Source: an uncultured Chloroflexia bacterium
GTDB taxonomy: Bacteria; Chloroflexota; Limnocylindria; Limnocylindrales; CSP1-4
Direction of reading: 5' to 3'
Assembly (NCBI GenBank): GCA_963763775.1
Contig: CAVXPZ010000002.1
Coordinates: forward strand, 64,001 to 128,000
Length of the DNA: 64,000 nt
How positions within the stretch are numbered: the first letter of the stretch is position 1; each line of letters starts with the position of its first letter. Both the position numbers and the translations under genes were made by a program. The notes under the pieces were generated by a model that was not told where the DNA came from, did no database searches, and worked only from the letters and a program-made list of their open reading frames with translations. Below, in pieces: positions 4,498-59,685 of the stretch.

Positions 4498-5142
4498 TCC
4501 AACCGCTGGCATTGCCGGCCGCCCCGCTTCGTCTCCTGTGCATCGGCGCCCACCCGGACGACATCGAGATCGGGGCGGGCGGGACGATCGCACGGCTGGC
4601 CGGCGAAGGCCGTCTCGCCGAGGTCCATTGGCTCGTGCTCACCGGGTCAGATGCGCGAGCGGCGGAAGCGCGGGCGGGCGCGAAGGCCTTCCTCGAGGAC
4701 GGCCCGGCGGCCAGCCTGACGCTGCATGCGTTCCGCGACGGCTTCCTCCCGACGCAGCAGGCGGAGGTCAAGCTCGCGTTCGAGGCCCTGAAGGGCACGA
4801 TCGAGCCGGACCTCATCCTCACCCATCGTCGCGAGGACCTCCATCAGGACCATCGGCTCGTCGCCGAGCTGACGTGGAACACCTTCCGCGACCACCTGAT
4901 CCTCGAGTACGAGATCGCCAAGTACGAGGGTGACCTCGGCTCGCCGAACGTCTACGTCGCCCTCCCCGACGGCGGCATCGAGGCGAAGGTCGAACGACTG
5001 CTCCGGGTCTTCGGAAGCCAGCACGGCCGCGATTGGTTCGAGCCCGAGGTCTTCCGTGGCCTGGCGCGGATCCGTGGCATGGAATGCCGGGCCCCGAGCG
5101 GATACGCCGAGGCATTCACGGGCCGCAAGATCCGGACTCTGA
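4494..5142 (+). CDS. PIG-L/LmbE family deacetylase (stop probably displaced by a 1-nt insertion near 5136)
   Basis: GAHPDDIEIG and HQDH metal motifs, YEIAKYEGDLG, ends AEAFTGRKIR. A TGA at 5140-5142 overlaps the next ATG. Confidence 0.88.
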
Positions 5143-6083
5143 TGGCGCCCGTCAAGCTCGGGGCCCTGCTCTGGAGCCAGTACACCGGCTGGAACGAGCT
5201 CCTCGAGGCCGCGCAGCGCGCCGACCGACTCGGCTACGACACGTTGTGGACGTGGGACCACGTCATGCCGGTCGTCGGCGACCCGGACGGACCGATCTTC
5301 GAAGGATGGTCGACGCTCGCCGCCTGGGCCCACGCGACCGACCGCATCCGCCTCGGGCTCATGGTCGGCGCCAACACGTTCCGACCGCCGGGCCTGACGG
5401 CGAAACTGGTCACGACCCTGGACCATATCTCGAACGGCCGGGCGATCCTCGGGATCGGCTCAGCCTGGTTCGAACCCGAGCATCTCGCCTTCGGGATCCC
5501 GTTCGGGTCCGGGGCGCCGGAGCGTCTCCGATGGCTCGCCGAGGCCCTGCCGGTCATCCGGTCGATGCTCGATGGACGTCCGGCGACCTCATCCGGCCCC
5601 CGCTACGCGGTCCAGGGAGCCCGCAATGACCCCGTGCCGGTCCAGGCGCATCTCCCGATCCTCATCGGTGGGGGCGGGGTCGACGTGACCCTCAAGCTCG
5701 TCGCCCGGTACGGCGATGCGAACAACATCGGCGGGGGCGTGGAGAACGTGCGTCGGAAGGACGAGATCCTCGTCCGGCACTGCGAAGCCATCGGCCGGGA
5801 CCCGGCGGAGATCGAGCGCACGTCCGGCCTCGGCACCGTCGTCATCAGGGATTTGCGACGGGAGGCCGTCAAGGTCCAGCGCGAGATCTTCGAACGGCAA
5901 GGCCGCGCCGAGGTCTGGGCCGACCAGCCGGTCGGCACCCCCGAGGACGTCGCCGAGCGCATCCTCGCCTACATGGACATCGGGTATCGCCACCTGACCG
6001 CCGGGTTCCCTGGCCCGCACGACGAGGAGTCGATGGTCCGCCTCGCCGGTGAGGTCCGCGCGATGGTCGATCGAGCGGGCTAG
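5142..6083 (+). CDS. LLM-class (luciferase-like, possibly F420-dependent) oxidoreductase
   Basis: GYDTLWTWDH, EGWSTLAAWA, TLDHISNGRAILGIG, PILIGGGG. Confidence 0.9.
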   Translation: MAPVKLGALLWSQYTGWNELLEAAQRADRLGYDTLWTWDHVMPVVGDPDGPIFEGWSTLAAWAHATDRIRLGLMVGANTFRPPGLTAKLVTTLDHISNGRAILGIGSAWFEPEHLAFGIPFGSGAPERLRWLAEALPVIRSMLDGRPATSSGPRYAVQGARNDPVPVQAHLPILIGGGGVDVTLKLVARYGDANNIGGGVENVRRKDEILVRHCEAIGRDPAEIERTSGLGTVVIRDLRREAVKVQREIFERQGRAEVWADQPVGTPEDVAERILAYMDIGYRHLTAGFPGPHDEESMVRLAGEVRAMVDRAG

Positions 6084-9000: not shown

Positions 9001-9757
9001 GGTTCTTCGGGGTCTGGCTGCCGCTGCTGCCCCCGAACTGCCCCCAGTCCGCGTTCGTGAAGCTCGCCCCGTCACCGCCGGAGACGTACAGCGCACCGTC
9101 GCTGCCGAACTGCATATCGCCGATGGAGTGGCTCGGGAACTGCTGGCACCAGTCGTTGATCAGCACGGTCTCCGAGCCGGTCATCACGTTGCCGGCGGCC
9201 TGGAGCCGCGAGACGCGGCTGCTGACCACGCAGCCGTCGGTGTTCGGTCCCGGCGGGTTCGGGCAGGCGTCGTTCCAGACGGGGGCCGTGCCGTTGATCG
9301 GCGCGTCGTAGGTATAGGCGACGTAGACGTACGGATCGGTCGGGAAATTCGGGGCGAGCACCATCCCGAGGAGCCCGCGGTCCCAGTAGTCATCGACCTT
9401 CGTCCGCAGATCCGCGAAGACGGTCGAGGTGGTCGCGGAGAGCGAGGCGAAGACCTTGATGAGCCCGCTCTTCTCGGCCACGAACACGCGTCCGTCGGAG
9501 GCGAACCGGACGTTGGTCGGGAAGGTGAGCCCGGAGATCGTGGTCGTCTCCGCCAGGCCGGTCGCGATGGACTGGGTCGAGAACGACCCGACCGTCGCGC
9601 GATGGGTGCCCACGGCCGCCCCGGCGTCCTCGCCCAGGAACGGGCGCGCGCTCGGGTCCGCCGCCGCGGCCGGCGAGACCGGCCCGACCGCGACCCCAAG
9701 CAGGGCCATCAGGACGACGGCCGTGGTGGCCGACCGTCCCATCCGTAGACGCCGCAC
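6080..9757 (-). CDS. Secreted PQQ-dependent glucose/sorbosone dehydrogenase-like protein with two LamG domains and a PKD domain
   Basis: Signal peptide ending PAAAA|D, then DGRVFVAEK, DRGLLG, QQFPSHSIG, GMRNPFR, GDVGWSDWEEID. PKD: TAPLAVSFSG...YAWDLDG. Two YWRLG(E/D)...LD(D/E)VA(I/V)Y LamG repeats. RBS GGGAGG precedes GTG 9757. Confidence 0.88.
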   Translation of the reverse strand: MRRLRMGRSATTAVVLMALLGVAVGPVSPAAAADPSARPFLGEDAGAAVGTHRATVGSFSTQSIATGLAETTTISGLTFPTNVRFASDGRVFVAEKSGLIKVFASLSATTSTVFADLRTKVDDYWDRGLLGMVLAPNFPTDPYVYVAYTYDAPINGTAPVWNDACPNPPGPNTDGCVVSSRVSRLQAAGNVMTGSETVLINDWCQQFPSHSIGDMQFGSDGALYVSGGDGASFTNADWGQFGGSSGSQTPKNPCGDPNNEGGALRAQDLRTMPSSGGSGLSYRSTVLADAPLVYWRLGEPTGILVNDQIGTQTGWYGGTSTRGVAGAIVGDTDGAVSLDGTSGYVGVPDYTPLDLANGPFSVEFWVKRKSTTGNQAILDRGPGSYQITFSGSDGKLTVAKNGGAILAKESTATTDTTTFHHFVITKSGATTKIYRDGVDVTAPGTDATLTNSTTNLWLGRWNDGTAFANVVLDDVAIYGTALSGAKALAHYQAGLAGGSGGGASDPVALNGSIIRIDPATGAGMPTNPLASSTDANARRIIAYGMRNPFRYTFRPGTSEIWVGDVGWSDWEEIDRITSTTSLRNFGWPCYEGVGQQPGYASLPICSSLYADSANPVTAPYFTYNHASSVLNGDGCAVGSSAIAGIAFYTGTSYPAEYRNALFFADNSRDCIWAMLPGSNGLPDPANIRVIASPAANPVKLEVGPGGDIFYVDFDGGTIRRITSTSTNQPPTARIVANPTSGTAPLAVSFSGTTSSDPENTALTYAWDLDGNGQYNDSTSATPSRTYTTAGIVTVGLRVTDTGGASATASVQISVGTASNNPPVPVIDTPLTGTTWAVGDQISFTGHATDTEDVTEPATRLSWQLVLQHCPSNCHTHQLQTFAGVATGSFAAPDHDYPSWLELTLTATNSANVSASTTLRLDPKTVVLSFRSVPSGLSVTVTGVSHTTPYDHTAIKGGVVSVTAPTPQSLAGTNYTFSNWSDAGAASHQVSAAAAATFTATYASSGSTASYKDTVIADGPSAYWRLGDTTGIIATDAVGTRTGWYGGTLTRGVAGAITGDANGAVSLDGTSGYVGVPGSSVPALGNGPLSIEFWFKRKTATGMQALLDDGPNAYQIDISGTTNKLTVSKNGGGIIVAETGTTTDTTTWHHVVFTKNGSAVKLYKDGADVTGTVTDRTLATSTTNLWMGRWNDGTKFGNVILDEVAVYAKVLTATQVAAHRTAGVGS

Positions 9758-9884
9758 GTGACCCTCCCCCGGCACCCTTCGACCCACGCATCCGCGGCGG
9801 AAGACGACCCGTTGGTGCTCGGGTCGCGAACCGACCCGGACCGCCGGTTTCCTGGGGATCCGCGCGCTGTGTGGTTGAGGTGGA

Positions 9885-9914
9885 GACTAGGCCGGTCCGG
9901 TGGGGTGCGTCAAC
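9885..9914 (-). promoter_or_regulatory. Sigma70-like promoter for the dehydrogenase gene (TTGACG-N18-TAGTCT)
   Basis: The minus strand reads ttgacg caccccaccggaccggcc tagtct about 130 nt upstream of the start. Confidence 0.5.
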
Positions 9915-9954
9915 CAGAATCCGGTGCACCCAGGCACCTGCCGCCCGGCCGGCC

Positions 9955-10881
9955 TCAGGGCGTGTAGGTGACGCTGACGGCCACGTAGTCGAGCTGGAAC
10001 TGCTTCGTGGTCAGCGTCGAGGCGTCGACGATCCGGACCCGGAAGTTCGTGGTGCTCAGCTGGGCGGCCGTCCAGGTGCGGCCCCACGTGTCCGACGTCG
10101 AGCCGAACGTGTACGTGGTCTCCGCCGCGGCCGGGATCGCCACGCTCTTGAGGGACGTCCAGGTCGTCCCGCCGTCCCAGGAGAGCTGGGCGCAGAGGTT
10201 CGTCGTGCCGCTCGCATTGTTCAACGCGAGGTCGGCCCGGACCCGGATGCCGTTGATGGACGTCACGGTGCCGGGCAGCCCGAGGACGTACCCCCAGAAC
10301 CGGTGTTGGTCCTTCGTCGTGTCGGGCGTCGCGCCGGTGCCGCACGACTGCGTCCCGCCGGTGCCGCTGTTCGCGTCGGTCGCGAACGACGAGTCGTCGA
10401 CGCAGGCGCGGGCCGGGTTGCCCTCGTAGCCGTTGTTGTCGCCGGCACTCGTCGTCTGGGCCCCGTTCGAGACGCACGGTTGATACAGCGTCGTCCCGTC
10501 GACGGCAGTGACCGTGTTGCTGTCGACGCTCTCCCAGCTCTGGAACACCGCCCGCAGCCGATACCAGAACGTCCCGCTGCCGGGGTCGTCGACGGTCGTC
10601 GTCGTGGTCCGGCCGGCGATCGCCGCGACCAGGGTGTACGTCCCGCCCGAGCTCGTCGCCCGATACAGGTTGTAGCCCGTCGCATAGGTGTCCGACGTCG
10701 CGGTCCAGCTCAGCGTGATCGAGGCGCCGCCCGCGGCGGTGAGCGTCGTCGGCGGCTGGAGGGTGTCCGACCCGACCGAGCCGGTGGACGTGGCGGCGTC
10801 GGTGTAGCGAGCCAGGGACCATGGCGCGGGAACGCCGATGACCAGGAGGGCCAGGACGAGCGGCACCGAGCGTCGGAGCAT
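9955..10881 (-). CDS. Secreted SipW-type signal-peptide protein with FN3-like and Cys-containing beta domains (TapA-like accessory)
   Basis: Hydrophobic leader then SLA|RYTD...GSVGSDTL, matching SipW-type (A|xF/YTD) cleavage. ITLSW...GYNLYR...WYRLRA is FN3-like. Confidence 0.75.
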   Translation of the reverse strand: MLRRSVPLVLALLVIGVPAPWSLARYTDAATSTGSVGSDTLQPPTTLTAAGGASITLSWTATSDTYATGYNLYRATSSGGTYTLVAAIAGRTTTTTVDDPGSGTFWYRLRAVFQSWESVDSNTVTAVDGTTLYQPCVSNGAQTTSAGDNNGYEGNPARACVDDSSFATDANSGTGGTQSCGTGATPDTTKDQHRFWGYVLGLPGTVTSINGIRVRADLALNNASGTTNLCAQLSWDGGTTWTSLKSVAIPAAAETTYTFGSTSDTWGRTWTAAQLSTTNFRVRIVDASTLTTKQFQLDYVAVSVTYTP

Positions 10882-10884
10882 CGG

Positions 10885-11478
10885 TCAGGCGACCGGGTCG
10901 GGCGTCCGGCCGTCGTCGGCCCACGCCACGCCGGCGTCGGACCCTTCGGCCTCGGCGGGGTCCCGATCGAGTGCCCACGAGCCCACCAGCAGGACGATCC
11001 CAAGCGCGATGACGAACAGGATCCCGCTCGGGATCGACAGGAGCGCGACAAGGAAGCCCGCGTACGGGATGACGAGGACCTCGCGGCCGAGGACGGCGGT
11101 CGCCGGGGTGATCGACGGATCGGGCGCGTCGTTGGCGTCGCCCTTCGTCTCCAGCCACGGCTGGCCGTCCCGTGCGGCGATGCGGATGATCCGATGCGTG
11201 AAGACCGCCCGCTGCGGTCCGCTGCGCAGGCTGACCACGTCGCCGACCGCGAGCTCGCCCGCGGCGACCGGCCTGACGACCACGGCGGCGCCGAGCGGGA
11301 TCGTCGGCTCCATCGAACCGCCGGCGACCACGAACGTGGAAGCGCCGAAGAGCGGCACGACGCGGCCGAGGACCACGCCGAACAGCGCGACCACGACGAC
11401 ACCGATCAGCGCGAGGTCAAGCGCGCGTCGCAGCCAGGTGGTCCCCCGTCGTTGCCGATCCATGGTTGGCATCTCCAT
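10885..11478 (-). CDS. sipW: Signal peptidase I, SipW (ER/archaeal Ser-His type)
   Basis: GGSMEPTI, GDVV, FTHRII, TKGDAN..D, IPYAG, with flanking TM helices. Start uncertain. Confidence 0.9.
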   Translation of the reverse strand: MEMPTMDRQRRGTTWLRRALDLALIGVVVVALFGVVLGRVVPLFGASTFVVAGGSMEPTIPLGAAVVVRPVAAGELAVGDVVSLRSGPQRAVFTHRIIRIAARDGQPWLETKGDANDAPDPSITPATAVLGREVLVIPYAGFLVALLSIPSGILFVIALGIVLLVGSWALDRDPAEAEGSDAGVAWADDGRTPDPVA

Positions 11479-11534
11479 GCTGCGACGGACCGCCACCCCG
11501 GGTGGGGCGACGGCGTCCACCGGCACGAATCGGG

Positions 11535-12125
11535 TTACGGGTTGTTGGCGGTCTGCTCGGCGTCGAACGTGAACGTCACGGCCGACGTGAGGCCCTGGAG
11601 CGTGTTCCCGCTGGTGAGCGGGAGGCTCACCCGGAAGCAGAGGACCTCGTTGCTCGCCGCCGCCAGCGTCCGGTCGCCGGCCTGGGCGCCCTGGGTGTTG
11701 CTGCCGATCGCGGCGCCGCTGAGCGCCGTGGCCGCCAGGACGGTCGTGCCGTCGAACGCGGCGCAACTGGTGCCCTGCGTCTTCACGGTCAGCTGGAGGG
11801 CCGCGCCGAGCGCGGTGGTCGCGGTCGTCGACATCGCGTAGCGGAGCGGCGCGGTGCCGGCGTTGGCGATCGTCATCGTGGCCGTGTTCGCGTCGCCGGG
11901 CATCATCGCCGCGACGTTGAACGCGACGGCCGGGCTCGATGTGATGTCGATGGTCCCGCTGGCGAACGACCCCGTCGACGCGGCGGTGTCGGTGAAGATC
12001 GCCAGGGAGAAAGCCCCGGCGCCCAGCCCGACCACGGTCAGGCCAAGCAGGGCAGCGAGGATCGGGCGGCGGTGGATGCGACGTTGCGCGCTCGGCATCC
12101 GGGTGAGGAGGTTGGACTCCTGCAC
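11535..12125 (-). CDS. TasA/CalY (camelysin)-family fibre subunit
   Basis: Leader then SLA|IFTDTAASTGSFASGTIDI, MMPGD, IANAGT, and C-terminal NTLQGLTSAVTFTFDAEQ. RBS-like AAAGGGG precedes GTG. Confidence 0.85.
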   Translation of the reverse strand: MQESNLLTRMPSAQRRIHRRPILAALLGLTVVGLGAGAFSLAIFTDTAASTGSFASGTIDITSSPAVAFNVAAMMPGDANTATMTIANAGTAPLRYAMSTTATTALGAALQLTVKTQGTSCAAFDGTTVLAATALSGAAIGSNTQGAQAGDRTLAAASNEVLCFRVSLPLTSGNTLQGLTSAVTFTFDAEQTANNP

Positions 12126-48278: not shown

Positions 48279-49544
48279 GTGCCTGAACGAGACCCAGCGC
48301 GCCGCGCGGTCGTGACCGGCCTCGGCGCCGTGATGCCGATCGGGAACGACTTCCCGACCTACTGGTCCAACCTCGTCAAGGGCGTGACCGGGACGCGACG
48401 GATCCAGAGCTTCGACCCGTCCGCCTTCGAGGTCCAGATCGCCGCCGAGGTGCTCGACTTCGACCCGACGAAGGCCATGGAGCCCAAGATGGCCCGGCGG
48501 ATGAGCCGGTTCATCCACTTCGCGATGGCCGCGGGCAAGGAGGCGGTCGAGGACTCGGGGATCGATTTCGCCTCGATGTCCCAGGAGGAGCGCGACCGGG
48601 TGGGCGTCGTCGTGAACACCGGCGGCGGCGGGATCGAGCAGATCATCGACGGCACGCACGTCCACGACACGAAGGGCCCGCGGTTCGTCTCGGCGTTCGC
48701 GATCCCGGCCCTCTCCGGTTCGATGGGCGCCGCGATGCTGTCGATGCAGTACGGGCTGACCGGTCCGGTCATGACCCAGGTCGCCGCCTGCGCGACCTCG
48801 GTCATCGCGTTCCACGACGCGCTGCGGCTCATCCGGTCCGGCGAGTGCGACGTCGTGCTCGCGGGCGGGTCCGAGGCCCCGGTCTGGCCGATGGGCGTGG
48901 CCGCCCTCTCGAACATGGGCGCGCTCTCGAAGCGCAACGACTCCCCGGAGACCGCGTCACGGCCGTTCGATGCGACCCGCGACGGCTTCGTCCTCGGCGA
49001 GGGCGGCGGCGTGGTCGTGGTCGAGTCGCTCGAGCACGCCCGCAACCGCGGCGCGACGCCGATCGCCGAGATCATCGGCGGCGCCCTGACCGCGGACGCG
49101 TTCCACATCAGCGCCCCGGAACCCACCGGCCGCGGCCAGGCCCGGGCCATGACCCAGGCCCTCCGCCACGCCGAGGTGACCACGGACGAGGTCGACTACA
49201 TCGTCGCGCACGGCACGTCGACGTCGCTCAACGACGTGACGGAGACGCGCGCGATCAAGGCGGCCTACGGCGATCGCGCCTACAAGGTCGCCATCAGCTC
49301 GCCGAAGTCGATGATCGGCCACCTCGTCGGGGCGGCGGGGATCGCCAGCGCGCTCGCGGCGATCGGCGCGATCCGCGACCAGGTCATCCCGCCGACCGCG
49401 AACCTGCACACGCCGGACCCCGAGTGCGACCTGGACTACGTCCCGCTCGTCGCCCGCAAGGCCAAGGTCGAGACGGTCAGCGTCAATGGCTTCGGCTTCG
49501 GCGGCCAGAACGCGGTGGCGGTGTTCCGCACGGTCGTCGACTAG
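48279..49544 (+). CDS. fabF: Beta-ketoacyl-ACP synthase II (second paralog)
   Basis: RAVVTGLG, AACATS, SRPFD, HGTST, KSMIGH, NGFGFGGQN. Confidence 0.92.
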   Translation: MPERDPARRAVVTGLGAVMPIGNDFPTYWSNLVKGVTGTRRIQSFDPSAFEVQIAAEVLDFDPTKAMEPKMARRMSRFIHFAMAAGKEAVEDSGIDFASMSQEERDRVGVVVNTGGGGIEQIIDGTHVHDTKGPRFVSAFAIPALSGSMGAAMLSMQYGLTGPVMTQVAACATSVIAFHDALRLIRSGECDVVLAGGSEAPVWPMGVAALSNMGALSKRNDSPETASRPFDATRDGFVLGEGGGVVVVESLEHARNRGATPIAEIIGGALTADAFHISAPEPTGRGQARAMTQALRHAEVTTDEVDYIVAHGTSTSLNDVTETRAIKAAYGDRAYKVAISSPKSMIGHLVGAAGIASALAAIGAIRDQVIPPTANLHTPDPECDLDYVPLVARKAKVETVSVNGFGFGGQNAVAVFRTVVD

Positions 49545-49610
49545 CGATCGGACGCGGCTCGGCCGGTCGACCGGAGCCCGGAGCCCGTAGCCCGGAGCGC
49601 GAGGGACGGC

Positions 49611-50115
49611 TCAGTTCACCGGCCGGAGCGTGTGGCCCTCGTAGGCCTCGATCGCGGCGACATGCGCCGGCGACAGCGGGACCGCCGCGGCGGACGCGTA
49701 GTCGTAGCGGACCAGGACCGATTCGCTCGACGGCCACCAGGCGGCGCTCCCCACCGGGGACGGACGCCAGCAGCCGATGCTGGAGCGTGAACGACGAGCG
49801 CCCGATCCGGCTCGTGCGCGACTCCACGGTGACGACCTCGCCGTGGAAGACCTGGGCGCGGTACGTGATCCGCGCCTCGGCGAGGATCAGGCTCTCCGGA
49901 TGCTCCGCCCCATGGCCGATGGGCTCGCCGGTCACGTCCGTCCAATACTGGATCCGAGCGACCTCGCAGTACGTGAGGTAGACGGCGTTGTTGACGTGGA
50001 CCATCGCATCGGTGTCGCCGAAGCGGACCGGGATCTCGACCACGTGCCGGAAGGCGCCCGTGAGATCGCGCGGGTCCGCGCCCGGGCCGGTGTGATGGTG
50101 ATGATCGTGCGTCAC
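49611..50115 (-). CDS. Acyl-CoA thioesterase (4HBT/YbgC hot-dog family); frameshift near 49725
   Basis: VRFGDTDAMVHVNNAVYLTYCEVAR, IGRSSF; C-terminus VLVRYDY..AVPL in a shifted frame. Confidence 0.88.
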
Positions 50116-50125
50116 GGGCGCGAGT

Positions 50126-52448
50126 CTACGCGGCTCGGTGGAACCCGCGCAGGCGCAGCGAGTTGGTGACGACGATGACCGACGAGATCGCCATCGCCCC
50201 CGCGGCGAGCGCCGGGCTCAACGTGATCCCGAACGCGGGGTACAGGACGCCCATCGCGACCGGGATCAGCAGGACGTTGTAGGCGAAGGCCCAGAACAGG
50301 TTCTGCCGGACGACGGTCATCGTGGCCCGCGAGAGTTCGAGCGCCGTCGCCACCGAGCGCGGGTCGCCGCCCACGAGCGTGACGTCCGACGCCTCGATCG
50401 CCACATCGGCTCCGGTCCCGATCGCGATCCCCAGGTCGGCCGATGCCAGCGCGGGCGCGTCGTTGAGGCCGTCGCCGACCATCGCGACGGTGCGCCCGCC
50501 GGCCCGGAGCCGCTCGACCAGGGCCGTCTTGTCGGCCGGGCGCGCATCGGCGAGGACGTGCTCCGGCAGGATGCCGACCGCGGCCGCGACCGTCTCCGCG
50601 GTCGACCGGCCGTCGCCGGTGGCCAGCCACGTCTCGATGCCGGCGCGGCTGAGCGCCCCGACCGCCGGGGCGGCCTCCGCTTTCACCGGATCGGTGATCG
50701 CGATGGCCCCGATCGCGCGGCCGTCCATCGCGACGAACGCCACCGTCCGGGCCCCCGCCGCCGCGCTCGCCAGCAGCCCGGCCATCGGCGTGAGGTCGAC
50801 GCCGCGCTCACGCACCCAGCGCTCGTTGCCGACGAGGACGACCCGCGGGCCGGTATCGGTCGTCACGGTCGCCTCGATGCCACCGCCGACACTCGCGACG
50901 AACCCCGTCGCGGGCAGGAACTCCCAACTCGTCCTGACGAGCCCGCGCCACGATCGCGGCGGCGAGTGGATGCTCGCTCCCCTTCTCCGCCGAGGCCGCG
51001 AGGTCGAGCACCGTCGCGATGCTGACGCCCGGCACCGTCAGCACGCCGTCGACGACCGGCCGGCCGAGCGTGAGCGTGCCGGTCTTGTCGAGGACGACCA
51101 CCGACACCTTGTGGGCGGTCTCGAGCGCCTCGCCGCCACGGATGAGGATCCCCGCCTCGGCGCCACGCCCCGTCCCGACCATGATCGCGGTCGGGGTGGC
51201 GAGGCCCATCGCGCACGGGCAGGCGATCACAAGCACCGTGATCGAGGCCACCAGCGCATACGTCAGCCGCGGTTCCGGCCCGAACGCCATCCACACCGCG
51301 AACGTGACGGCCGACAGCACCAGGACCAGCGGGACGAAGACCTCGGCGATCCGGTCGGCGAGCCGGGCGATGGGCGCCTTCGAGCCCTGGGCGCGCTCGA
51401 CGAGGGCGATGATCCGCGCGAGTGCGGTGTCGAGCCCGACATGCGTGGCACGCATGACGAACGACCCGGTCGTGTTGAGCGTGGCGCCGATCACCTCGTC
51501 GCCCGGACCCTTGGCGGCCGGGATGGGCTCGCCGGTCAGCAACGCCTCGTCGACGGCCGACGCGCCCTCGACGACCACGCCGTCGACCGGCACCTTGTCA
51601 CCGGGCCGGACCCGCAGGAGGTCGCCGACGACCACGGCCTCGAGCGGCACCTCGATGTCGCGGCCGCCGTCGACGCGGATGGCCGACGTCGCGCTGAGCG
51701 CGGCGAGACGCCGGATCGCGCTCACGGTGCGGACCTTGGCGCGGGCCTCGAGCCACCGCCCGAGCAGCACGAGGCCGATGATGATCGACGCGCTGTCGAA
51801 GTAGGTCAGCGGCTCCAGGCCGGCCGCCTGCACGACGGACGGGAAGAGCGTGACCACGACGCTATACGCCCAGGCCGCGGTCGTCCCGATCGCGACGAGG
51901 GTGTCCATGTTGCTGGTGCCGTGTCGCGCGGTGCGCCAGGCGGACCGATAGAACCGGCGACCCGCCCAGAACTGGATGACCGTGGCCGGCACCAGCGCGA
52001 TGAGATTCCGCTGCTCCATCCCGAGCCCCTCGGCCGGGATCGCCATCAGGACCATGATCCCGAACGCGACGGCGATCGATGCGACCGCCTGGACGAGCAG
52101 CCGGTCCGCGGCTCGGGCCCGGTCGGCGTCCTCGGCGGTGCGCTCCGAGGCCAGGTCCGATGGCGTGATCGGCGTGATCGCGACGGGGCGCGGGGCGCGA
52201 ACCTCGTACCCGGCGGCCTCGACCGCGCCCACGAGATCCGACCTCGTCGCCACGTCGGGCAGGTAGTGGATCGTCGCGATCTCGGTGGCGAGGTTGACGC
52301 TGGCGTCCTGGACGCCCGGCGTGTTGCGCAGGAATCGCTCGATGCGGTTCACGCAGGACGCGCAGGTCATCCCTTCGACCGGGAGGGCGAGCTCGGCGGC
52401 TGACCCGGGCCCGGTCGGTGGGATGGCGAGGACGATGGACTCAGACAT
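50126..52448 (-). CDS. copA: Cu(I)-type heavy-metal P1B ATPase; frameshift(s) near 50905-50930
   Basis: [32 protein letters not shown]...P...AM..SS. Confidence 0.92.
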
Positions 52449-52463
52449 ACTCCCTGGGAGTAT
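52447..52463. promoter_or_regulatory. CsoR-like operator overlapping the copA promoter/start
   Basis: Perfect palindrome ATACTCCC-T-GGGAGTAT overlapping a minus-strand TATACT -10 and the copA ATG. Confidence 0.72.
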
Positions 52464-52488
52464 ACCACCCGCGTACCATGGCGGACCC

Positions 52489-53076
52489 ATGCCGACCCCC
52501 ATCGACGCCGACGTCGTCGTCCGGACCATCGCCGGTCCGTGGGGGCCGCTCCATGTCGCGGCGTCGGTCCGGGGCATCGTCGCGGCCGAGTCCGCGGTGA
52601 CGGACGAGGCCTTCCGGTCCGGCCTGCGGCGCCGACTCGGCGACCCCGGGGCGACCCGGTCGACCGCCGTCGCCCCCGACGACCTGCGGCTCGCCCTGCT
52701 CGATCGTGCGGAGACCGCGATCGGCGAGCTCCTGGCGGGCGGACCACCGCACGACGACGTCCCGGTGGACCTCGCGGACCGTCCGGTCTGGGATCAGCGA
52801 GTGTTGGCGGCCGTCCGGGCGGTGCCGTGGGGACGGACCGCGAGCTACGGCGAGATCGCCCGGCGGATCGGCGCGCCGCGGGCGGCCCGCGCGGTCGGCG
52901 GGGCGCTGGGCCGGAACCCGGTCACGCTCCTGATCCCGTGCCACCGGGTGATCGCCGCCGACGGCACCATCGGCGGGTACGGCGGCGACGGGTGGGGTGG
53001 GCGCGAGGCTGCCCTCGAGCGAAAGCGATCGCTGCTCGCGCGCGAGGGCGTCACGGTGGCCCAGCCGGACGGCTAG
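52489..53076 (+). CDS. ogt: Methylated-DNA--protein-cysteine methyltransferase
   Basis: [20 protein letters not shown]...IPCHRVI. Confidence 0.92.
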
Positions 53077-53120
53077 ACTCCGCGCCACGTCGGCCGGGAC
53101 GCCGACCTCGCGGAGGACCC

Positions 53121-54929
53121 ATGGCGATCGCGGCGGCCCCAGCCCCCTCCATGTTCGCGGTCTTCCGCCGGCGCGACTTCTCGCTGCTGTGGATGGCGCA
53201 GCTCATCTCGACCGCCGGGTCGGCGCTGACCGACCTCGCCGCGGGCATCTGGGTCTACCGGGAGACCGGGTCCGCGCTCGCGGTCGGACTCACGCTCATG
53301 GCGACGGCGATCCCGAGCCTCATCGTGGGTCTGCTGGCCGGGGTGTACGTCGACCGCCACGACCGCAAGCGGATCATGATCATCACCTGCCTCGTCCAGG
53401 CGGTCGTGGTCGCCTGCATCGCGTTCGTCGTGCAGGCCGACATCATCGTCGGCCTGTATGCGCTGCTGCTCCTGAACGCAGGCGTGAAGCAGTTCTTCGA
53501 CCCGGCGCACGACAGCCTGATCCCGGAGCTCGCGAGCGACGAGGAGCTGGCCTCGGCGAACGCGTTCCTGTCGATCGCCTCGTTCGGCTCCACCGCGATC
53601 GGGTTCGCCGGCGCCGGGCTGCTGGCCAGCACGATCGGGCTCACGTGGGCCTTCATCATCGATGCCGCCTCGTTCGTGGTCGGCGCGGTCCTGATCGGGC
53701 TCATGGGCCACTACACCATGCCGCCGCCCGAGGAGGACGCGACGGTCGCGGTGATCATGGAGAACCTGCGCTCCGGGCTCTCGACGCTGTTCGGGACGCC
53801 GATCATCCGCTCGCTGTTCATCGTCGGCGCGTTCATGTTCGTCGCGTTCGGCCTCTGGAACGTGCTCCTGCTCCCGTTCTCGATCACCGTGCTCGGCGCG
53901 ACCGAGTTCGAGTACGGCCTGCAGGAGGGCCTCACGTCCGTCGGGTTCGTGATCGGCTCGCTGCTGATGGCCCGATTCGCGAACCGGCTGCCGGAACCGG
54001 CGTGGATCGTCGTCTCGCTGGTCGGCATGGGCCTCGCCGGCCTGCTGTACGCCACCGCGACCAGCGTGCCGTTCGCCATCCTCGTGGTGACCATCAGCGG
54101 GCTGCTCCAGCCGCCGTCCTCGGTGTCGCGAGCGGTCCTGCTCCAGCGGAACACCCCGCGCGAGATGCGCGGTCGCGTGTTCTCCGCGTTCTACGTCATG
54201 CGCGACGTCATCTTCCTCATCGGCATGGCCGGCGCGGGGCTCGCGGACATCATCGACATCCGGGTGCTCATCGTGGTCGCCTCGTGCCTGCTGTTCGTGT
54301 CCGCCGGGTTCACGCTGGTCGCCCCGGGGCTCGGTATCCGCACCTGGGGCGCCGCCGCCGCGCGGCTTCGCGCCGCAGCTGCGGCGCCGGGCATCGCGGG
54401 GGCACCGAGGCGCGTCGCGACCATGGCGGACTTCGACCGGCTCGCCGGCCGGACCAGCGCGTTCGCGAACCTGTCGCCGACGCAGCGCGAGGCGTTCATC
54501 GCCGACGCCAGCGTCCACGACATCGAGGCCGGCACGCGAGTCCTCGAGCATGGCGACGCGGCGACGAGCGCCTATTTCATCCTCGAAGGGTCGACGACGG
54601 CCGGCGTCCCCACCGAGGGCGGTTACCGCGGACTCTCGACGATGGCCGCCGGCGACTTCTTCGGGGAGATCGCGGCGCTGACCGGCAGCGTGCGGACGGC
54701 CGACGTCGTGGCGGACACGAACGCCGTCCTGCTCGAGGTGCCGGCCGAGGCGCTTCGCGGGGCGATGGCGGTCCCGGAGGTCGACCGTCTGGTGATGTCG
54801 ACCCTGAACAGCCGGATCCAGCGGACCGAGAACGCCGACCTGCCGAGGCTCGCGGGCGTCGACCAGGCATCACTCAAGGACCTGCGGACGTCGCACGTCG
54901 AGGCCGACGCCGAGGCCGCCGCGTCCTGA
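53121..54929 (+). CDS. MFS transporter with C-terminal cyclic-nucleotide-binding domain
   Basis: RDFSLLWMAQLIS, AGVYVDRHDRK (motif A), about 12 hydrophobic segments, MRGRVFS, then AYFILEG...FFGEIAAL...RTADV. Confidence 0.9.
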   Translation: MAIAAAPAPSMFAVFRRRDFSLLWMAQLISTAGSALTDLAAGIWVYRETGSALAVGLTLMATAIPSLIVGLLAGVYVDRHDRKRIMIITCLVQAVVVACIAFVVQADIIVGLYALLLLNAGVKQFFDPAHDSLIPELASDEELASANAFLSIASFGSTAIGFAGAGLLASTIGLTWAFIIDAASFVVGAVLIGLMGHYTMPPPEEDATVAVIMENLRSGLSTLFGTPIIRSLFIVGAFMFVAFGLWNVLLLPFSITVLGATEFEYGLQEGLTSVGFVIGSLLMARFANRLPEPAWIVVSLVGMGLAGLLYATATSVPFAILVVTISGLLQPPSSVSRAVLLQRNTPREMRGRVFSAFYVMRDVIFLIGMAGAGLADIIDIRVLIVVASCLLFVSAGFTLVAPGLGIRTWGAAAARLRAAAAAPGIAGAPRRVATMADFDRLAGRTSAFANLSPTQREAFIADASVHDIEAGTRVLEHGDAATSAYFILEGSTTAGVPTEGGYRGLSTMAAGDFFGEIAALTGSVRTADVVADTNAVLLEVPAEALRGAMAVPEVDRLVMSTLNSRIQRTENADLPRLAGVDQASLKDLRTSHVEADAEAAAS

Positions 54930-54942
54930 CCCACGCTCGGGC

Positions 54943-55008
54943 TGTCGGGCAGCTGACAGCGGCAGGGTCGCAGGTGGACTTCACCGAGCCCCGACCGTGG
55001 CCTAAGGT
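54943..55008 (+). promoter_or_regulatory. Candidate Crp/CooA-type site (TGTCG-N6-TGACA) plus TTCACC-N17-TAAGGT promoter for the peptide gene
   Basis: Palindrome at 54943-54958; -35 at 54980-54985; -10 at 55003-55008. Confidence 0.45.
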
Positions 55009-55041
55009 TCGGTCATCCAGGAAGGACGAAGGAGGCGCGAG

Positions 55042-55245
55042 ATGCAGAAGAAGATCCAGCTCCCGAAGGAAGCCGGCGTCGGACCCGAGGATGCGACCAA
55101 GCGGCACACCGCGCTCGACGAGGACGATGTCGAGGGCCACCGCGTCGCCACGAAGAACCCCGAGCCCTTCTCCCCGCACCTCCCCTCGACGGGCGGCGAG
55201 CTGACGGACGACGCCCCCGGCAGCGAGGACCTCGCCAAGCGCTAG
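55042..55245 (+). CDS. 67-aa acidic peptide of unknown function (DDVEGH motif)
   Basis: Strong RBS AAGGAGG, GC3-rich codons, and a hairpin downstream. Confidence 0.8.
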   Translation: MQKKIQLPKEAGVGPEDATKRHTALDEDDVEGHRVATKNPEPFSPHLPSTGGELTDDAPGSEDLAKR

Positions 55246-55268
55246 GTTCGCGCATCGAGCGCCGATCG

Positions 55269-55302
55269 GAGACCGTCCCGTCCGACTGGACCGGACGGTC
55301 TC
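55269..55302. terminator. Hairpin between the convergent peptide and S8 peptidase genes
   Basis: GAGACCGTCC...GGACGGTCTC 10-bp stem plus inner GTCC/GGAC. Confidence 0.7.
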
Positions 55303-55303
55303 T

Positions 55304-56140
55304 TCACGTCCGGGTCTCGCCGGGGTCGTTCGCCGTCGCGGCGAGGAGGCTCTTGATCTCGAACGGGCTCGCGTCCGGATACCGGCTGCAGAGGCGCGCC
55401 GCCTGGCCCGCGAGATGCGGGGCCGCGAACGAGTTCCCGGTGACGCGGATCCGGGTCCCGCCGAGCCAGGCCACGTCCACATCGACGCCGTGCGCCCCGA
55501 ACTCGACCGGCGGCGCGGGGTTGTAGAACCAGATCGACGGGTCGCCGAGGTCGTGGGCGGCCGTCGAGATGACCGTCGCGAAGAGCGAGGGGTACGACGG
55601 CCCCAGGACGTTGTTCGCGGCACTCACGAAGAGGGTGTTCGCGAAGTAGGCGCGGTCCGCCGTCTCGTGGAAGAGTCCGTGCAGGGCCTCGCTCCGCGAC
55701 GACAGGCTCAGGTTCACGACCCGGATGCCCTCGTCGATCGCCCAGTCGAGGGCGGTCAGGAACGCGAGCCCCTTGCCGCGGTTGTCCGGTCCGAGGACCC
55801 GCACCGACACGAGCGACGCCGCCGGCGCGATGGCGTGGATGATCCCGGCGCACGCCGTGCCGTGGCCGACGACGTCGACGCCGGCGGGGTCGTCGGCGAT
55901 CGTGGCGTCCTCGCCGTCGATCTCGACGCGGACACTCCGAACGAGCCGGCCGCCGACCGCCGGGTGGTCGCGCTCCACCCCTGAATCGATGATGGCGACC
56001 GTGACACCGTCACCGTCGCTCTCGCCGAAGACCGCATCACGCTCCAGGCGGCCGAACGGCCGCTCGCGGGTCAGGGTGGACCGGCGACCGGCCGCGAACG
56101 GCTCGCTCCAGGCTGGGAGCGGCAGGTCCGCCTCGGTCAC
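55304..56140 (-). CDS. Compact S8 (subtilisin-like) serine peptidase lacking a signal peptide
   Basis: AIIDSG (Asp), GHGTACAG (His), AANN (oxyanion Asn), TGNSFAAP (Ser). Confidence 0.92.
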   Translation of the reverse strand: MTEADLPLPAWSEPFAAGRRSTLTRERPFGRLERDAVFGESDGDGVTVAIIDSGVERDHPAVGGRLVRSVRVEIDGEDATIADDPAGVDVVGHGTACAGIIHAIAPAASLVSVRVLGPDNRGKGLAFLTALDWAIDEGIRVVNLSLSSRSEALHGLFHETADRAYFANTLFVSAANNVLGPSYPSLFATVISTAAHDLGDPSIWFYNPAPPVEFGAHGVDVDVAWLGGTRIRVTGNSFAAPHLAGQAARLCSRYPDASPFEIKSLLAATANDPGETRT

Positions 56141-56955
56141 GACCGCGACGGCCGATGCGGACCGCGGCGGGCGTTGCGCCGCAGGACCGCGTCGAGGATG
56201 TCGACGACGAGGTCGGCGTCGTCCGCATCGATCGCCCGCAGCCGCGCGAGCCGGTCCGCGATCCGCCAGACCGGCGCGTCCTCGGTGGCCTCGCCGGTGA
56301 ACGCGGCACCGACCAATGCCTCGATCGCGGCGTCGTCGAGCGCGCCGGGCGCGGCCGCCGCGACCGAGATCAGCGCGTCGCGGAGGAGATGCGCCCCGTG
56401 CCGCTCGAGGCGCGTCGCCTGGATCGCGACACTCGCCTGTCGGGCGAACACCGTCGCGAGCTCGATGTCGCGCAGGCCGAAGGTCGTCCCGTCGAGTCGG
56501 TCGAGGATCTCGAGGACGCCGATGACGTCCGCATCGGCGACGAGCGGCACCGCCAGCAGCGACCGCGGGACGTAGCCGGTCCGTTCCGCGGCGTCACGGC
56601 CGAACCGCGGATCGGCGGCCACGTCGCCGATCACCAGCGGAGAGCCGGTCGCGAACACATATCCGGCGACGCCCTCGCCGGGCTCGATGCTGAGGCCGAT
56701 GACGCCCTCGCCTCGGGCGCCGGCCGCGACGCGAAAGACGAGTCGGTCCGTCGAGGGATCGTGGAGGGCCAGCGACGCCGCCTCGGACCCGAACATCGCG
56801 ACCGTGGCCTCGACGATGCTCCGCAGCACGGCCTCGCCACCGGGCGGCTCGAGCCGGCTCGCCGCATCGAGTCGGCGGGCGACGGCCGTCAGTGCCCCGA
56901 GGGCCGCCGCCAGGTCGGCGGAGGAGCCCGCGCCCGGGTCTCGGGGCTCGCTCAC
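56137..56955 (-). CDS. Stand-alone GAF-domain protein
   Basis: AASLALHD, GEGVAGYVFATG.P..I.DVAADPRF, SLLAVPL...VIGVLE, F...D.ELA..FA. GTG overlaps the Crp stop. Confidence 0.88.
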   Translation of the reverse strand: MSEPRDPGAGSSADLAAALGALTAVARRLDAASRLEPPGGEAVLRSIVEATVAMFGSEAASLALHDPSTDRLVFRVAAGARGEGVIGLSIEPGEGVAGYVFATGSPLVIGDVAADPRFGRDAAERTGYVPRSLLAVPLVADADVIGVLEILDRLDGTTFGLRDIELATVFARQASVAIQATRLERHGAHLLRDALISVAAAAPGALDDAAIEALVGAAFTGEATEDAPVWRIADRLARLRAIDADDADLVVDILDAVLRRNARRGPHRPSRS

Positions 56956-57669
56956 CGACGCACCGCATCCGCCAGGCGTCCGGGGTCCGGGACCACCAGC
57001 ACGTCCCCGTCGAAACGCAGCACGTCGTCGGCGACCAGCTCGGCCAGCAGCCGGTTGACCGACTGGCGTGACCCGCCGATCATCCCCGCGAGCTCGGCCT
57101 GGGTATACGGCCACGGCGAGCTGCGCCCCACCGGCCGGCCACCCGTCGTCGCCATCGCCGCCGATCGACCGGAGGATGTGCTTGGCGAGGCGCCCCGACA
57201 GGTCGAGGAAGTGCAGGTCTTCGACCTGGGCGGTCAGCCGACGGACCTCGGTCGCGAGCGAAGCGAGCAGCGCCCGGCGCATCCCCGACTCCTGGTCGAG
57301 CAGCCGGTCGAACGCCTCGCGACGCAGGATGAGGACGATGGTCTCCTCGAGCGACTCGACCGTCGCCGATCGTGGCGCGCCGTCCAGCAGCGACAGCTCC
57401 CCGAAGAAGCCGCCCGGACCGATGGTCGCGAGGATGGCGGGCTCGGCGCCGTCGTCGGACGGGAGGACGACCTTGACCGAGCCGCTGACGACGACGAAGA
57501 GGGCGTCCGCCGGATCGCCGACGTGGAAGATGACCTCACCGCGGCGCGACCTTCGCTGTCGCATGGCGTCGACGCAGAGGTCGACGGAGCGTTCGTCGAG
57601 GTCCGCGAACAGCCGGCAGGCGCGCAGCGCGTCGTGGCCGATCGAGCGGTCGAATGCCGTGAGCACCAT
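56952..57669 (-). CDS. Crp/Fnr family transcriptional regulator; +1 frameshift near 57117
   Basis: FHVGD, SGSVKV, FFGELSLLDGAPRSA, RLAK; HTH TQAELAGMIGGSRQSVNRLL in the adjacent frame. Confidence 0.9.
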
Positions 57670-57696
57670 GCACGCCATCGTACGGCGTGCGGACCG

Positions 57697-58377
57697 CTAC
57701 GGGCGCGGCACCGGGCGCATCGGGTAGACGCCGATCACGACGGGCGTCCGGGGGTCGAGCGAGAGCTCGTAGCCGACCTCGCCGGCGCGGACCAGCTCGC
57801 CGAGCAACTGCCCCTCGCGGGCCGGCAGCCCGACGAAGATGCGCCCGGGATCGAGGTCGATCGGGCTGACGTCGTCGTCGCCGGTGTCGATCGCGAACCG
57901 ACGCCGCAGCTCGTGCATCGGCACGTAGGGACGGCTCTTGATGAAGCGGCGCAGCTGCGGGGCGGTGCACGCCGTGCCGCGGTCCCCGCCGTTCATCGGC
58001 CGATCCTGAGGGCCGGAGGGCGGCCCGTGGCCCGGCGCGGGCATCGGGCCGGACGGACGCGAGGGCGGCACGACCGAGGGAGCCGGTCGCTCGATGGGCG
58101 GGGCGTTCCCCGGCGCGGCGTTCCCGCCGGCGGGGGCGGGGGCGGCGCTCGGCGGGAGCGAGGCCGGCGTCGGGAGCGCGGGCTGCGCCGCGGACGCGGT
58201 CGGCGCAGCAGGCGCGGTCGGCGCGGATGGGGCCCCCGACGGCAGCGCGGGCTTCTCCGCCGGGATCGCGGGCAGCTCGGCAGCCTGGACGGCGCGAGGC
58301 TCGCCCGGCTGGCCCGGACGTGGTCCGGGCTGGCGGGCGCGCTCGTGGTGGTGCGCGCGACCGCGGCGCCGGCTCAT
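57697..58377 (-). CDS. Hypothetical protein with Pro/Ala-rich N-terminus and compact C-terminal domain
   Basis: A low-complexity linker precedes CTAPQLRRFIKSRPYVPMHELRRRF...VGYELSLDP...IGVYPMR. Start uncertain. Confidence 0.65.
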   Translation of the reverse strand: MSRRRGRAHHHERARQPGPRPGQPGEPRAVQAAELPAIPAEKPALPSGAPSAPTAPAAPTASAAQPALPTPASLPPSAAPAPAGGNAAPGNAPPIERPAPSVVPPSRPSGPMPAPGHGPPSGPQDRPMNGGDRGTACTAPQLRRFIKSRPYVPMHELRRRFAIDTGDDDVSPIDLDPGRIFVGLPAREGQLLGELVRAGEVGYELSLDPRTPVVIGVYPMRPVPRP

Positions 58378-58527
58378 CGGTCGGTCGACCCGGGCTGGAC
58401 GGCTCGGATCGGTGCGGCGCCGCTGTGGCAGCGCTGGAAGGTCAGGTTCATCAGGTCTCGGAGGAGGGCGGCTCGATCAGGCAGGGCCGTCGCCCGATGA
58501 TACCGCACGCTCCGATGGGCGCCGGGC

Positions 58528-59685
58528 TCAGCCGTCGACGACGTACAGCTCCCGAGCGGCCTCGTTGAGCACGACCGGCCCGTCCGGGCCACACGCGACG
58601 ATGTCCTCGATCCGCGCCCCGTACTCGCCGACGAGGTAGATCCCGGGCTCCACGGAGAACGTCATGCCCTCGCGGAGCGCCAGCGCATTGCCCGCGACCA
58701 GGTAGGGGTCCTCGTGGCCGTCGAGGCCGATCCCGTGGCCCGTCCGATGGAAGAACGCCTCGCCGTAGCCCGCGGCGTCGATCGGCCGGCGAGCCGCCGC
58801 GTCGATGTCCTCGCACGCCTCGCCGGGCCGGACCGCGGCGGTGGCCGCCGCCTGGGCGGCGTACAGCACGCCGAAGAGCTGCTGGAACCCGTCGTCGGGC
58901 CCCTTGGCCGGGTCGCCGCCGGTCACCCACAGGGTCCTCGTGATGTCCGATCCGTACCCGCCGAGCACGCCGCCGATGTCGAGCACGATGGGCTCGCCCG
59001 CGCCGATGACGCGGTCCGACGCCTCGTGGTGCGGCGACGCCGAGTTCGGTCCGGAGGCGACGATCGCGAACAGCCCGACGTCGTGACCCTCCTCGATGAG
59101 GCGTGCCGTGACCTCGCTGGCGACGTCCGCCTCGGTCCGCCCGATCAGCCGGCCCGCGGCGATGCTCGCGACGACCCGGTCGGCGGCGTGGGCAGCGAGC
59201 GTCAGCAGGGCGATCTCGTCCGTGTCCTTGATCATCCGCAGGTCGCGCAGCACCGAGGACGCGAGCCGGAACGCCCCGTCGGGGAGTTCGCCCTGGAGTC
59301 GCAGCAGGTGCATGGCGATGAGCGTGTCCGAGACCGCGAATCGGCTCGCGTGGGGCCGGCGTGCCCGGACGTGGCCGGCGACGAGGGCGTAGGCATCCTC
59401 GGTCTCACCCCAGGTGAGGATGTCGACGTCCGTCCGGAGACCGCGCTCCGCCGCGCCACGCTCCAGTCGCGGGACGACGATCACCGGTTCGTGCCCCGGC
59501 ACCACGACGAGCATCGTCAGGCGCTCGAGCGGCATCGCCTCGTAGCCGGTGAGGTAGCGGAGATCAGATCCGACGCCGATGAGGAGCGCGTCGAGCCCGG
59601 CGGCGGCGGCCGCCTCGCCGGCCGCCGCGAGGCGTGCCGCGTAGCGAGTGCCGGGGATCGTCGGACGAGCCATGTCGATGGTCAT
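58528..59685 (-). CDS. M24 Xaa-Pro peptidase
   Basis: DLRYLTGY, LRMIK, GPNSASPHH, D..SDITRT, HRTGHGIG, EPGIY, RIED. Confidence 0.93.
   Translation of the reverse strand: MTIDMARPTIPGTRYAARLAAAGEAAAAAGLDALLIGVGSDLRYLTGYEAMPLERLTMLVVVPGHEPVIVVPRLERGAAERGLRTDVDILTWGETEDAYALVAGHVRARRPHASRFAVSDTLIAMHLLRLQGELPDGAFRLASSVLRDLRMIKDTDEIALLTLAAHAADRVVASIAAGRLIGRTEADVASEVTARLIEEGHDVGLFAIVASGPNSASPHHEASDRVIGAGEPIVLDIGGVLGGYGSDITRTLWVTGGDPAKGPDDGFQQLFGVLYAAQAAATAAVRPGEACEDIDAAARRPIDAAGYGEAFFHRTGHGIGLDGHEDPYLVAGNALALREGMTFSVEPGIYLVGEYGARIEDIVACGPDGPVVLNEAARELYVVDG

Follow-up and report, generated by a model that had tools for sequence, protein, structure and literature searches.

The yeast alpha-factor precursor carries tandem short peptides with acidic spacers and is diced by Kex2, an S8 kexin, into identical products, and in the Phr/Rap systems of Bacillus unmodified linear signal peptides are freed from small precursors by subtilisin-type proteases. 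Here we describe a locus in a 64,000-nucleotide stretch of DNA (the window, meaning the whole stretch that was analysed) from a soil Candidatus Limnocylindria bacterium, which carries a conserved set of genes for an acidic-tag peptide, a cytoplasmic S8 protease, a GAF protein, a Crp-type regulator and a cNMP-binding exporter. We give about an even chance to the reading that cyclic nucleotides control the production, cleavage and export of ribosomal peptides by this conserved module, by way of a Crp-controlled precursor, GAF-gated S8 cleavage and MFS export. Lanthipeptide maturation offers a close bacterial parallel: according to a review (PMC10885120), AmyP is an S8 protease for class III leaders that recognises (T/S/A)EVE, and ElxP is a cytoplasmic S8 enzyme of the LanP type acting on class I lanthipeptides.

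The source genome comprises 3.3 Mb in four contigs and is 87% complete, and its relatives are labelled Candidatus Limnocylindria or Chloroflexota. In the window, an MFS transporter with a C-terminal cNMP domain (53121..54929, plus strand) and the gene of a 67-aa peptide, pep67 (55042..55245, plus strand; identified as an open reading frame (ORF) with a motif), converge on minus-strand genes for a Crp-type regulator, a 272-aa GAF protein (56137..56955) and a 278-aa Peptidase_S8 protein (55304..56140). A first-pass annotation of this DNA had described five contiguous genes. All five were found where it had placed them, and three further details that it gave were borne out by the sequence, by alignment and by a structural model: the GTGA overlaps (Crp stop/GAF start at 56952-56955; GAF stop/S8 start at 56137-56140), the full S8 catalytic triad, and a protease that has neither signal peptide nor prodomain. 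It had overlooked, however, that the Crp gene is not intact in the assembly.

Comparison with orthologues placed a 1-nt frame break in the Crp gene at about 57113-57134. The N-terminal part (57116..57678, minus strand; Pfam cNMP_binding at residues 42-129) shares its frame with the ATG at 57678 (E 2.4e-25), and the C-terminal part with HTH_Crp_2 (56952..57155, minus strand; Pfam, E 2.9e-10) is in another frame; the long ORF as assembled, a 513-aa cNMP...GAF product, is an out-of-frame read-through. All eight orthologues checked have the cNMP and helix-turn-helix (HTH) domains in a single frame of 225-247 aa, the gene of locus L106 being intact at 236 aa, and the cNMP domain of the window's regulator has the usual FGE...PRSAT cassette. 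Two further genes in the same 15 kb, both within 49483-52577, are likewise split into two frames when compared with their orthologues. One is thioesterase-like and breaks at about 49727-49774; the other encodes the copper P-type ATPase CopA and breaks at about 50857-50925. The Crp break is therefore probably an assembly indel rather than the mark of a pseudogene.

The window proteins were mapped by tblastn in 95 loci, 15 from other genomes of the genus and 80 from one-genome-per-species records. Co-occurrence in other genomes was the test that the first-pass annotation had set in advance, and its outcome was positive. The result showed that the GAF gene lies directly upstream of the S8 gene in all 95 loci. 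Among the 79 loci with at least 2.6 kb of upstream sequence, the Crp N-domain was present in 73 and the Crp HTH in 72. An MFS gene lies within 7 kb of S8 in 79 of the 95 loci, and its product has a cNMP match in 74 of these 79. Four arrangements of the MFS gene were found: convergent downstream (32 loci), same-strand downstream (25), same-strand upstream (15) and divergent upstream (7). Among the 16 loci without an MFS match, only two (L030 and L046) have at least 4 kb on both sides. The peptide ORF completes the set: an acidic run followed by [VTIA]EGH occupies a set position in 82 of the 95 loci.

In the wider phylum, 34 genomes in a draw of 300 others matched S8 at E 1e-40 or better, 15 of them among the 32 of the same class and 19 elsewhere (the count of 34 includes genome G184, from which nothing else was used). 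Of 12 loci from other classes of Chloroflexota, 11 have the GAF and S8 genes side by side, in the order GAF-S8 in eight and S8-GAF in three, and DVEGH repeat ORFs are present in three of these. The module is thus an accessory one, patchy in its distribution.

pep67 is a short form of the peptide, with the sequence MxKKIxLPKE, a PSTGGE motif and only one intact acidic motif, DEDDVEGH, a second having decayed. It belongs to no Pfam or NCBIfam family. Only four homologues were found in 5.8 billion predicted proteins, and no function is given in the name of any of them (one is called 'hypothetical protein'); the best ESM Atlas score, 0.77, is under the level that counts. A tblastn search with pep67 gave 22 matches in 20 loci, which made it look weakly conserved, and a motif search then widened the set. 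The 82 motif ORFs at set positions fall into two forms, one convergent just after S8, as in the window (44 loci), and the other between Crp and GAF on the same strand (38 loci). Six further loci have the motif ORF at some other place within 6 kb; in L039, L044 and L047, for instance, it is upstream of Crp. Of the last seven loci, four carry variants of the motif: L014 has DVEAH, and in L023, L026 and L027, from the window's own genus, the variant is DEDDT[EA]GQ, in tandem repeats (detected by TRF) upstream of the MFS gene. L064 and L065 hold further variants. No motif ORF was seen in L025, L029 and L075, of which L029 and L075 are short of flank on one side. The pattern [DE][DEN][VTI]EGH occurs three times in all six frames of the 3.3-Mb source genome, one of the three being pep67.

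Across 268 instances, the motif consensus is D-D-D-D-[TV]-E-G-H with a small residue before it, and the spacer is of the type A-[TS]-(G)-DDDD-[TV]-EGH. The 'between' ORFs have a conserved leader, RRRPPMEGFSRPGSLGGEA-x-DDD-x-VEGH, followed by one to eight units (median four), each consisting of a variable, mostly basic segment and the acidic motif. The number of repeat copies is one to eight by motif count and up to 11.5 by TRF, and the segments between the motifs are hypervariable. In 32 of 36 'between' ORFs the stop codon comes 4-9 residues past the last EGH, so that the last unit seems to have no spacer; 21 of these 32 end in Arg or Lys. The layout is that of a multi-core precursor, as judged from these sequences. 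The 67-aa peptide singled out in the first-pass annotation holds its place as a conserved component, but the tandem-repeat nature of its family had been missed.

Proteins of a second family, about 60-70 aa long, have a conserved helical tail (...ARER.IQ....EARPNK) behind a single DD[TV]EGH motif. It was found upstream of Crp in L031, L032, L033, L042 and L048, and on the opposite strand 2.5-5.5 kb upstream in L061, L068, L071, L072, L079, L084 and L085; in L039 the helical tail is fused behind four repeat units. Two members were checked, with nothing above the Pfam cut-off.

The pep67 gene has signals of its own. A Shine-Dalgarno sequence, AAGGAGG, lies 7 nt 5' of its ATG, and a GC-rich hairpin (55268..55303), found by folding between the convergent pep67 and S8 stops, is a candidate two-way terminator: its energy is -31.2 kcal/mol (z -3.2), and 2 of 200 shuffles fold equally well. 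One further terminator-like match, inside pep67 on the minus strand, was not used. A scan for sigma-70 promoters in 54850-55400 returned no site.

A general census of palindromes gave mostly GC-rich coding noise, and only TGTCG-N6-CGACA stood out. A relaxed pattern gives a motif ORF in 94 loci, and in 67 of these the palindrome, with at most one mismatch, was found on the correct side of the first motif, 153-407 nt upstream of it (median 193). Random placement of the same number of sites per locus gave a mean of 8.5 loci and a maximum of 16 in 500 trials. The palindrome tracks the peptide gene, being located after S8 in the convergent form and between Crp and the peptide in the 'between' form; in L025-L027 it is at the operon head. 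The window's copy, TGTCAGCTGCCCGACA (16 bp, 54943..54958), has one mismatch and lies 83 nt before the pep67 ATG. Genome-wide there are two exact copies and 117 with one mismatch in 3.3 Mb. In spacing and symmetry the palindrome resembles CRP/FNR-type sites, and we infer that it is a candidate operator bound by the module's own Crp-type regulator. The proposal of the first-pass annotation that Crp induces the peptide is indirectly supported by this CRP/FNR-like site, which lies upstream of the peptide gene in most loci and in the window.

One of the two exact copies lies outside the window, 97 nt before the ATG (129921) of an unlinked 76-aa DVEGH ORF (G000:C4:129921-130151), in a region (G000:C4:129808-130151) divergent from a PadR-like gene. 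Because this second DVEGH ORF has an exact palindrome upstream, the sequences suggest a small regulon of DVEGH-type peptides. The other exact copy (G000:C1:1295258-1295273) has a membrane-protein gene on one side and a regulator-like gene on the other, and the gene of an 876-aa secreted-type S8 protein is about 2.3 kb away.

The 278-aa protease matches Pfam PF00082 at 100.7 bits (cut-off 21.8; E 1.2e-28), with the domain beginning at residue 43, and has no hydrophobic N- or C-terminus. Alignment of 40 orthologues showed that D52, H93, S237 and the oxyanion Asn, N177, are invariant, as is the N-terminal segment PAWSEPF. The predicted structure (pLDDT 87.5) was matched by Foldseek to mature subtilisin BPN' with E 4e-18, TM 0.64-0.70 and 28-29% identity over 240-260 columns. 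With triad, oxyanion Asn, Pfam score and fold all in agreement, the protein is a true member of the peptidase S8 family.

Its assignment to a named subfamily failed in each case tried. The best NCBIfam match was QhpE, a leader peptidase (NF049966), at 106.9 bits (E 9.3e-31) where 165 bits are required. The mycosin model of the type VII secretion system (TIGR03921) gave 104.7 bits against 278.75 required, and the signal peptide and C-terminal membrane anchor that mark mycosins are missing, as neither terminus is hydrophobic. The cyanobactin PatA/PatG protease model (TIGR03895) gave 24.2 bits against 421 required.

The GAF protein (Pfam E 4e-20) was modelled with a pLDDT of 88.2 as a long N-terminal helix, a GAF core at about residues 40-180 and a C-terminal helical bundle. 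Its nearest solved relatives, by sequence profile and fold, are cyclic-nucleotide GAF domains (4mcw, E 3e-31; 5w10, the Lcd1 GAF with cAMP, TM 0.73; CyaB2, 1ykd; 2zmf; and those of PDE2, PDE5 and PDE10). This kinship makes a cyclic nucleotide the probable ligand.

Structure prediction of the S8-GAF complex, from alignments of 40 rows per protein, gave ipSAE values of 0.61, 0.61 and 0.64, and the best control gave 0.01. At least 87% of contacts were common between runs, and the partner pLDDT was at least 66. The mark used for this score is reached by 116 of 157 solved complexes and by 2 of 215 mismatched pairs, rates that are approximate with custom alignments. On the S8 side, the predicted interface consists of residues 53, 90-93, 116-121, 145-152, 174-178 and 229-237, and so takes in the catalytic His and the oxyanion Asn, both substrate-binding strands and the strand that runs up to the catalytic Ser. 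GAF contributes residues 91-112, 136-144 and 158-168, which we read in the model as the helix-strand region closing the ligand pocket of GAF domains. These predictions support binding of GAF to S8 over its catalytic cleft. Because the ligand-pocket face would lie over the cleft, GAF may gate the protease or present its substrate, and the GAF-controlled protease postulated in the first-pass annotation gains the support of the model. We know of no solved GAF-subtilase complex, and the GAF profile matched 31 PDB entries without any being named as such a complex.

In L023 and L026, the two aligned members of the clade with Gln in the motif, S8 has AANNV changed to ASNY beside the oxyanion Asn, within the predicted GAF interface. 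Occurring in the same clade, the motif change and the protease change are a single-lineage hint of co-variation.

The transporter has Pfam matches to MFS_1, MFS_3 and cNMP_binding (E 3e-41, 3e-24 and 1.1e-14), with PF05977 and PF07690 at 85.8 and 141.9 bits and the cNMP domain at residues 468-549, which places it among MFS_3/EntS-like exporters. The NCBIfam equivalog models for EntS, for the ryptide exporter and TIGR00900 were all under their cut-offs. Two subtypes occur among the loci, 54-83% and 25-30% identical to the window's transporter, and both are fused to cNMP; the MFS of L106, for example, combines MFS_3 with cNMP_binding (E 1.9e-23).

A link to peptide maturation was found in a genus of another class. 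In L114 (41% GC; 2452-11555) the gene order is a 75-aa ORF, a RamC_N + Pkinase + LANC_like gene, GAF, S8, an MFS_3 gene without a cNMP domain, and a cyclase-NB-ARC-TPR gene. The second gene has the architecture of a class III lanthipeptide synthetase (LanKC), and the 75-aa ORF is a candidate precursor. The same arrangement was found in L124, from the same low-GC genus. This context, seen in one lineage, supports a role of the GAF-S8-MFS trio in peptide maturation. A tblastn search with the L114 synthetase across all loci collected matched only L114 and L124, so that the lanthipeptide link is not a general one. The window's own module has no LanKC synthetase and is not a class III lanthipeptide cluster. 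Beside the module in L072 there is a cyclase-STAND-TPR gene with 36% identity to that of L114.

Nor does the module qualify as a source of ribosomally synthesised peptides that carry post-translational modifications (RiPPs) in the strict sense, which calls for a cluster enzyme that modifies the peptide in some way besides proteolysis. The conserved genes are those for Crp, peptide, GAF, S8 and MFS only, with no modifying enzyme among them, although one encoded elsewhere is possible. The statement in the first-pass annotation that the circuit works without modifying enzymes accordingly applies to the Limnocylindria loci examined, but not to the one other genus in which the trio is attached to a class III lanthipeptide synthetase.

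In the mechanism that we propose, the Crp-family regulator would bind TGTCG-N6-CGACA upstream of the peptide gene and control that gene. The peptide would be a precursor with a conserved leader and one to many short, variable, mostly basic units, each then followed by an acidic spacer, of which pep67 would be the short form. The S8 protease would act in the cytoplasm in complex with the GAF protein encoded just upstream, which would sense a ligand, probably a cyclic nucleotide. Cleavage would take place at or beside the conserved motif and free the units, and the MFS_3-type transporter with its own cNMP domain would export them. The products might serve in signalling, act as antimicrobials or bind metal. 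A bolder version, possible rather than probable in our judgement, is a bacterial counterpart of prohormone processing. Here a cytoplasmic S8 capped by a GAF that senses cyclic nucleotides would dice a polyprotein, made of a leader and several units, at DDDD[TV]EGH into multiple copies of a short, basic, species-specific peptide, a nucleotide-gated MFS would export these as signals, and a Crp switch would act through an operator that also marks unlinked peptide genes, without any modifying enzymes and widespread in soil Chloroflexota.

Several findings weigh against a conserved module that makes, cuts and exports peptides in this way. The window's pep67 has just one intact motif, and the motif His is not essential, because one clade of the same genus has DEDDT[EA]GQ. 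Even with one mismatch allowed, 27 of 94 loci have no palindrome; six of the 79 loci with sufficient flank gave no Crp match, and Crp is frame-broken in the present assembly. S8 at the level of orthologues (E 1e-98 or better) was found in 15 of 24 other genomes of the genus, with five weak matches and four genomes without any, and in a second draw S8 was present in 3 of 15 genomes of the family. The lanthipeptide link is confined to two genomes of one genus, and the Limnocylindria loci have no conserved modifying enzyme; the products would be plain linear charged peptides, unusual for exported signals. Finally, the predicted position of GAF on the active site would suit simple inhibition no less than gating.

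The main rival is a switch based on regulated proteolysis, in which the acidic peptide would inhibit the Crp-type regulator or the cNMP domain of the MFS protein, GAF-S8 would destroy the peptide when a cyclic nucleotide is bound, and the transporter would be the regulated output. The predicted seat of GAF on the S8 active site, like that of a ligand-controlled lid, agrees with such a switch, as does the presence of three cNMP-type sensor domains in one module, and an operator upstream of the peptide gene would permit a feedback loop. But a stoichiometric binding partner would not be expected to come in 1 to about 11 units with hypervariable segments, the transporter belongs to the exporter-type MFS_3/EntS group, and in L114 and L124 the trio is part of a lanthipeptide cluster; we therefore hold this switch to be unlikely. 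The lid-like placement has also been weighed in another sense. GAF might shield an acyl-enzyme from water, like the PatG cap, so that S8 would act as a transpeptidase or macrocyclase that cyclises or ligates the units. In the model the prime side of the cleft lies beneath GAF, as does the strand preceding the catalytic Ser (residues 229-237), and the repeat units are followed by a conserved, follower-like motif. Set against this, S8 hardly matches the PatA/PatG model (24 bits against a cut-off of 421), the units are very short and cyclic products are without support, which leaves this account very improbable.

The composition of the motif, an acidic run plus His, raises the question of metal handling: Asp/His-rich fragments might bind metal and be exported as metallophores or for detoxification, and a cut before E-G-H would leave an X-X-His Cu/Ni site. 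A copper P-type ATPase gene is found 0.5 kb from the module in the window, and EntS-like MFS proteins export siderophores, a point that concerns the family name only. The change of His to Gln in L023, L026 and L027 weakens the idea of an amino-terminal X-X-His site, however, and the CopA neighbourhood is local synteny of one clade, outside the module, with no metal-related gene conserved with the module, so that metal handling is very improbable as well. Least credible of all, to the point that we give it almost no weight, is that a housekeeping protease, a regulator and a drug-efflux pump are neighbours by chance and that the small ORF is not a gene. High GC does yield many spurious ORFs, and the functions of the parts are assigned from sequence. 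Mere proximity is contradicted by the survival of the set in four different arrangements and in more than one class, and by the rarity of the motif in the genome; in addition, the small ORF has a Shine-Dalgarno sequence, a candidate operator and a terminator-like hairpin.

A reading as a Pycsar or other anti-phage system was also considered. PADLOC returned generic domain matches only (the cNMP domain to PycTIR-type effectors and S8 to a generic subtilase model), and the defence reading was dropped for this reason; of the 19 class III cyclase-domain matches in the genome, which speak in favour of the proposed cyclic-nucleotide control, none is on the window's contig. Local GC in the window is 70-75%, and the ORF list is consequently full of spurious frames. 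No Rfam family matched 52000-59000 at the gathering threshold. The genes named near the module are Ogt, CopA, an M24 peptidase and a CBS protein. Directly upstream of Crp there is a 226-aa ORF (57697-58377, minus strand) whose N-terminal half is low-complexity Pro/Ala and whose C-terminal approximately 100 aa are conserved, with synteny to the M24 peptidase gene kept. It belongs to no Pfam or NCBIfam family, and a 118-aa upstream piece gave nothing above the Pfam cut-off.

If the proposed mechanism is right, many uncultured soil Chloroflexota would have a pathway for the production and export of peptides that standard RiPP miners overlook, since there is no modifying enzyme and the precursor genes are mostly unannotated. 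It would also tie cAMP-type signalling to peptide output at the levels of transcription, cleavage and export. To our knowledge, no subtilase has been described before that a GAF sensor regulates in trans, and this would be the first. The module offers testable parts in a 16-bp candidate operator, a predicted two-protein complex and a defined putative cleavage motif, and a motif-specific protease, if it proves to be one, could serve as a tool enzyme. We found no description of the module in the open full-text literature (Creative Commons articles in PMC, and bioRxiv; subscription-only papers are outside this scope). In the same literature 'DVEGH' retrieved nothing relevant by title or abstract. 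Among the matches listed, there was no link of the class III lanthipeptide leader and subtilisin literature to GAF, and no mention of Limnocylindria beside subtilisin or a precursor peptide.

Compared with the described systems, the locus combines familiar and unfamiliar features. QhpE resembles the window's protease in being a small cytoplasmic S8 enzyme without a prodomain, but it matures the QhpC subunit of quinohemoprotein amine dehydrogenase, a substrate of a different kind from the module's peptide; no qhp-type gene is among the named flanking genes, although no search was aimed at qhp genes. The yeast alpha-factor precursor and Kex2 work in the eukaryotic secretory pathway and with dibasic sites, whereas the present system would be bacterial and cytoplasmic, with a GAF partner and proposed MFS export. 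Phr peptides differ in that they use Sec export and are cut outside the cell, without GAF, Crp or a cNMP-gated MFS.

The likeness to AmyP and LanP, compared by description, is that a dedicated S8 protease is encoded beside a ribosomal precursor that is cut at a short conserved motif (PMC10885120). Unlike these, the module has an obligate GAF partner, cNMP domains on both regulator and transporter, a multi-unit precursor with acidic spacers, and no lanthipeptide synthetase in the window or the 95 loci. The cyanobactin PatE/PatA/PatG system shares a multi-core precursor in which recognition sequences flank variable cores, and cutting by S8 enzymes (PMC10885120), but the present loci have no heterocyclase or other pat genes and no macrocyclase insert was seen in S8. 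Relative to the known combination of a precursor, a dedicated S8 protease and an exporter, what is new here is that the protease has a GAF partner, that cNMP domains wire the module, and that the precursor consists of several units with acidic spacers.

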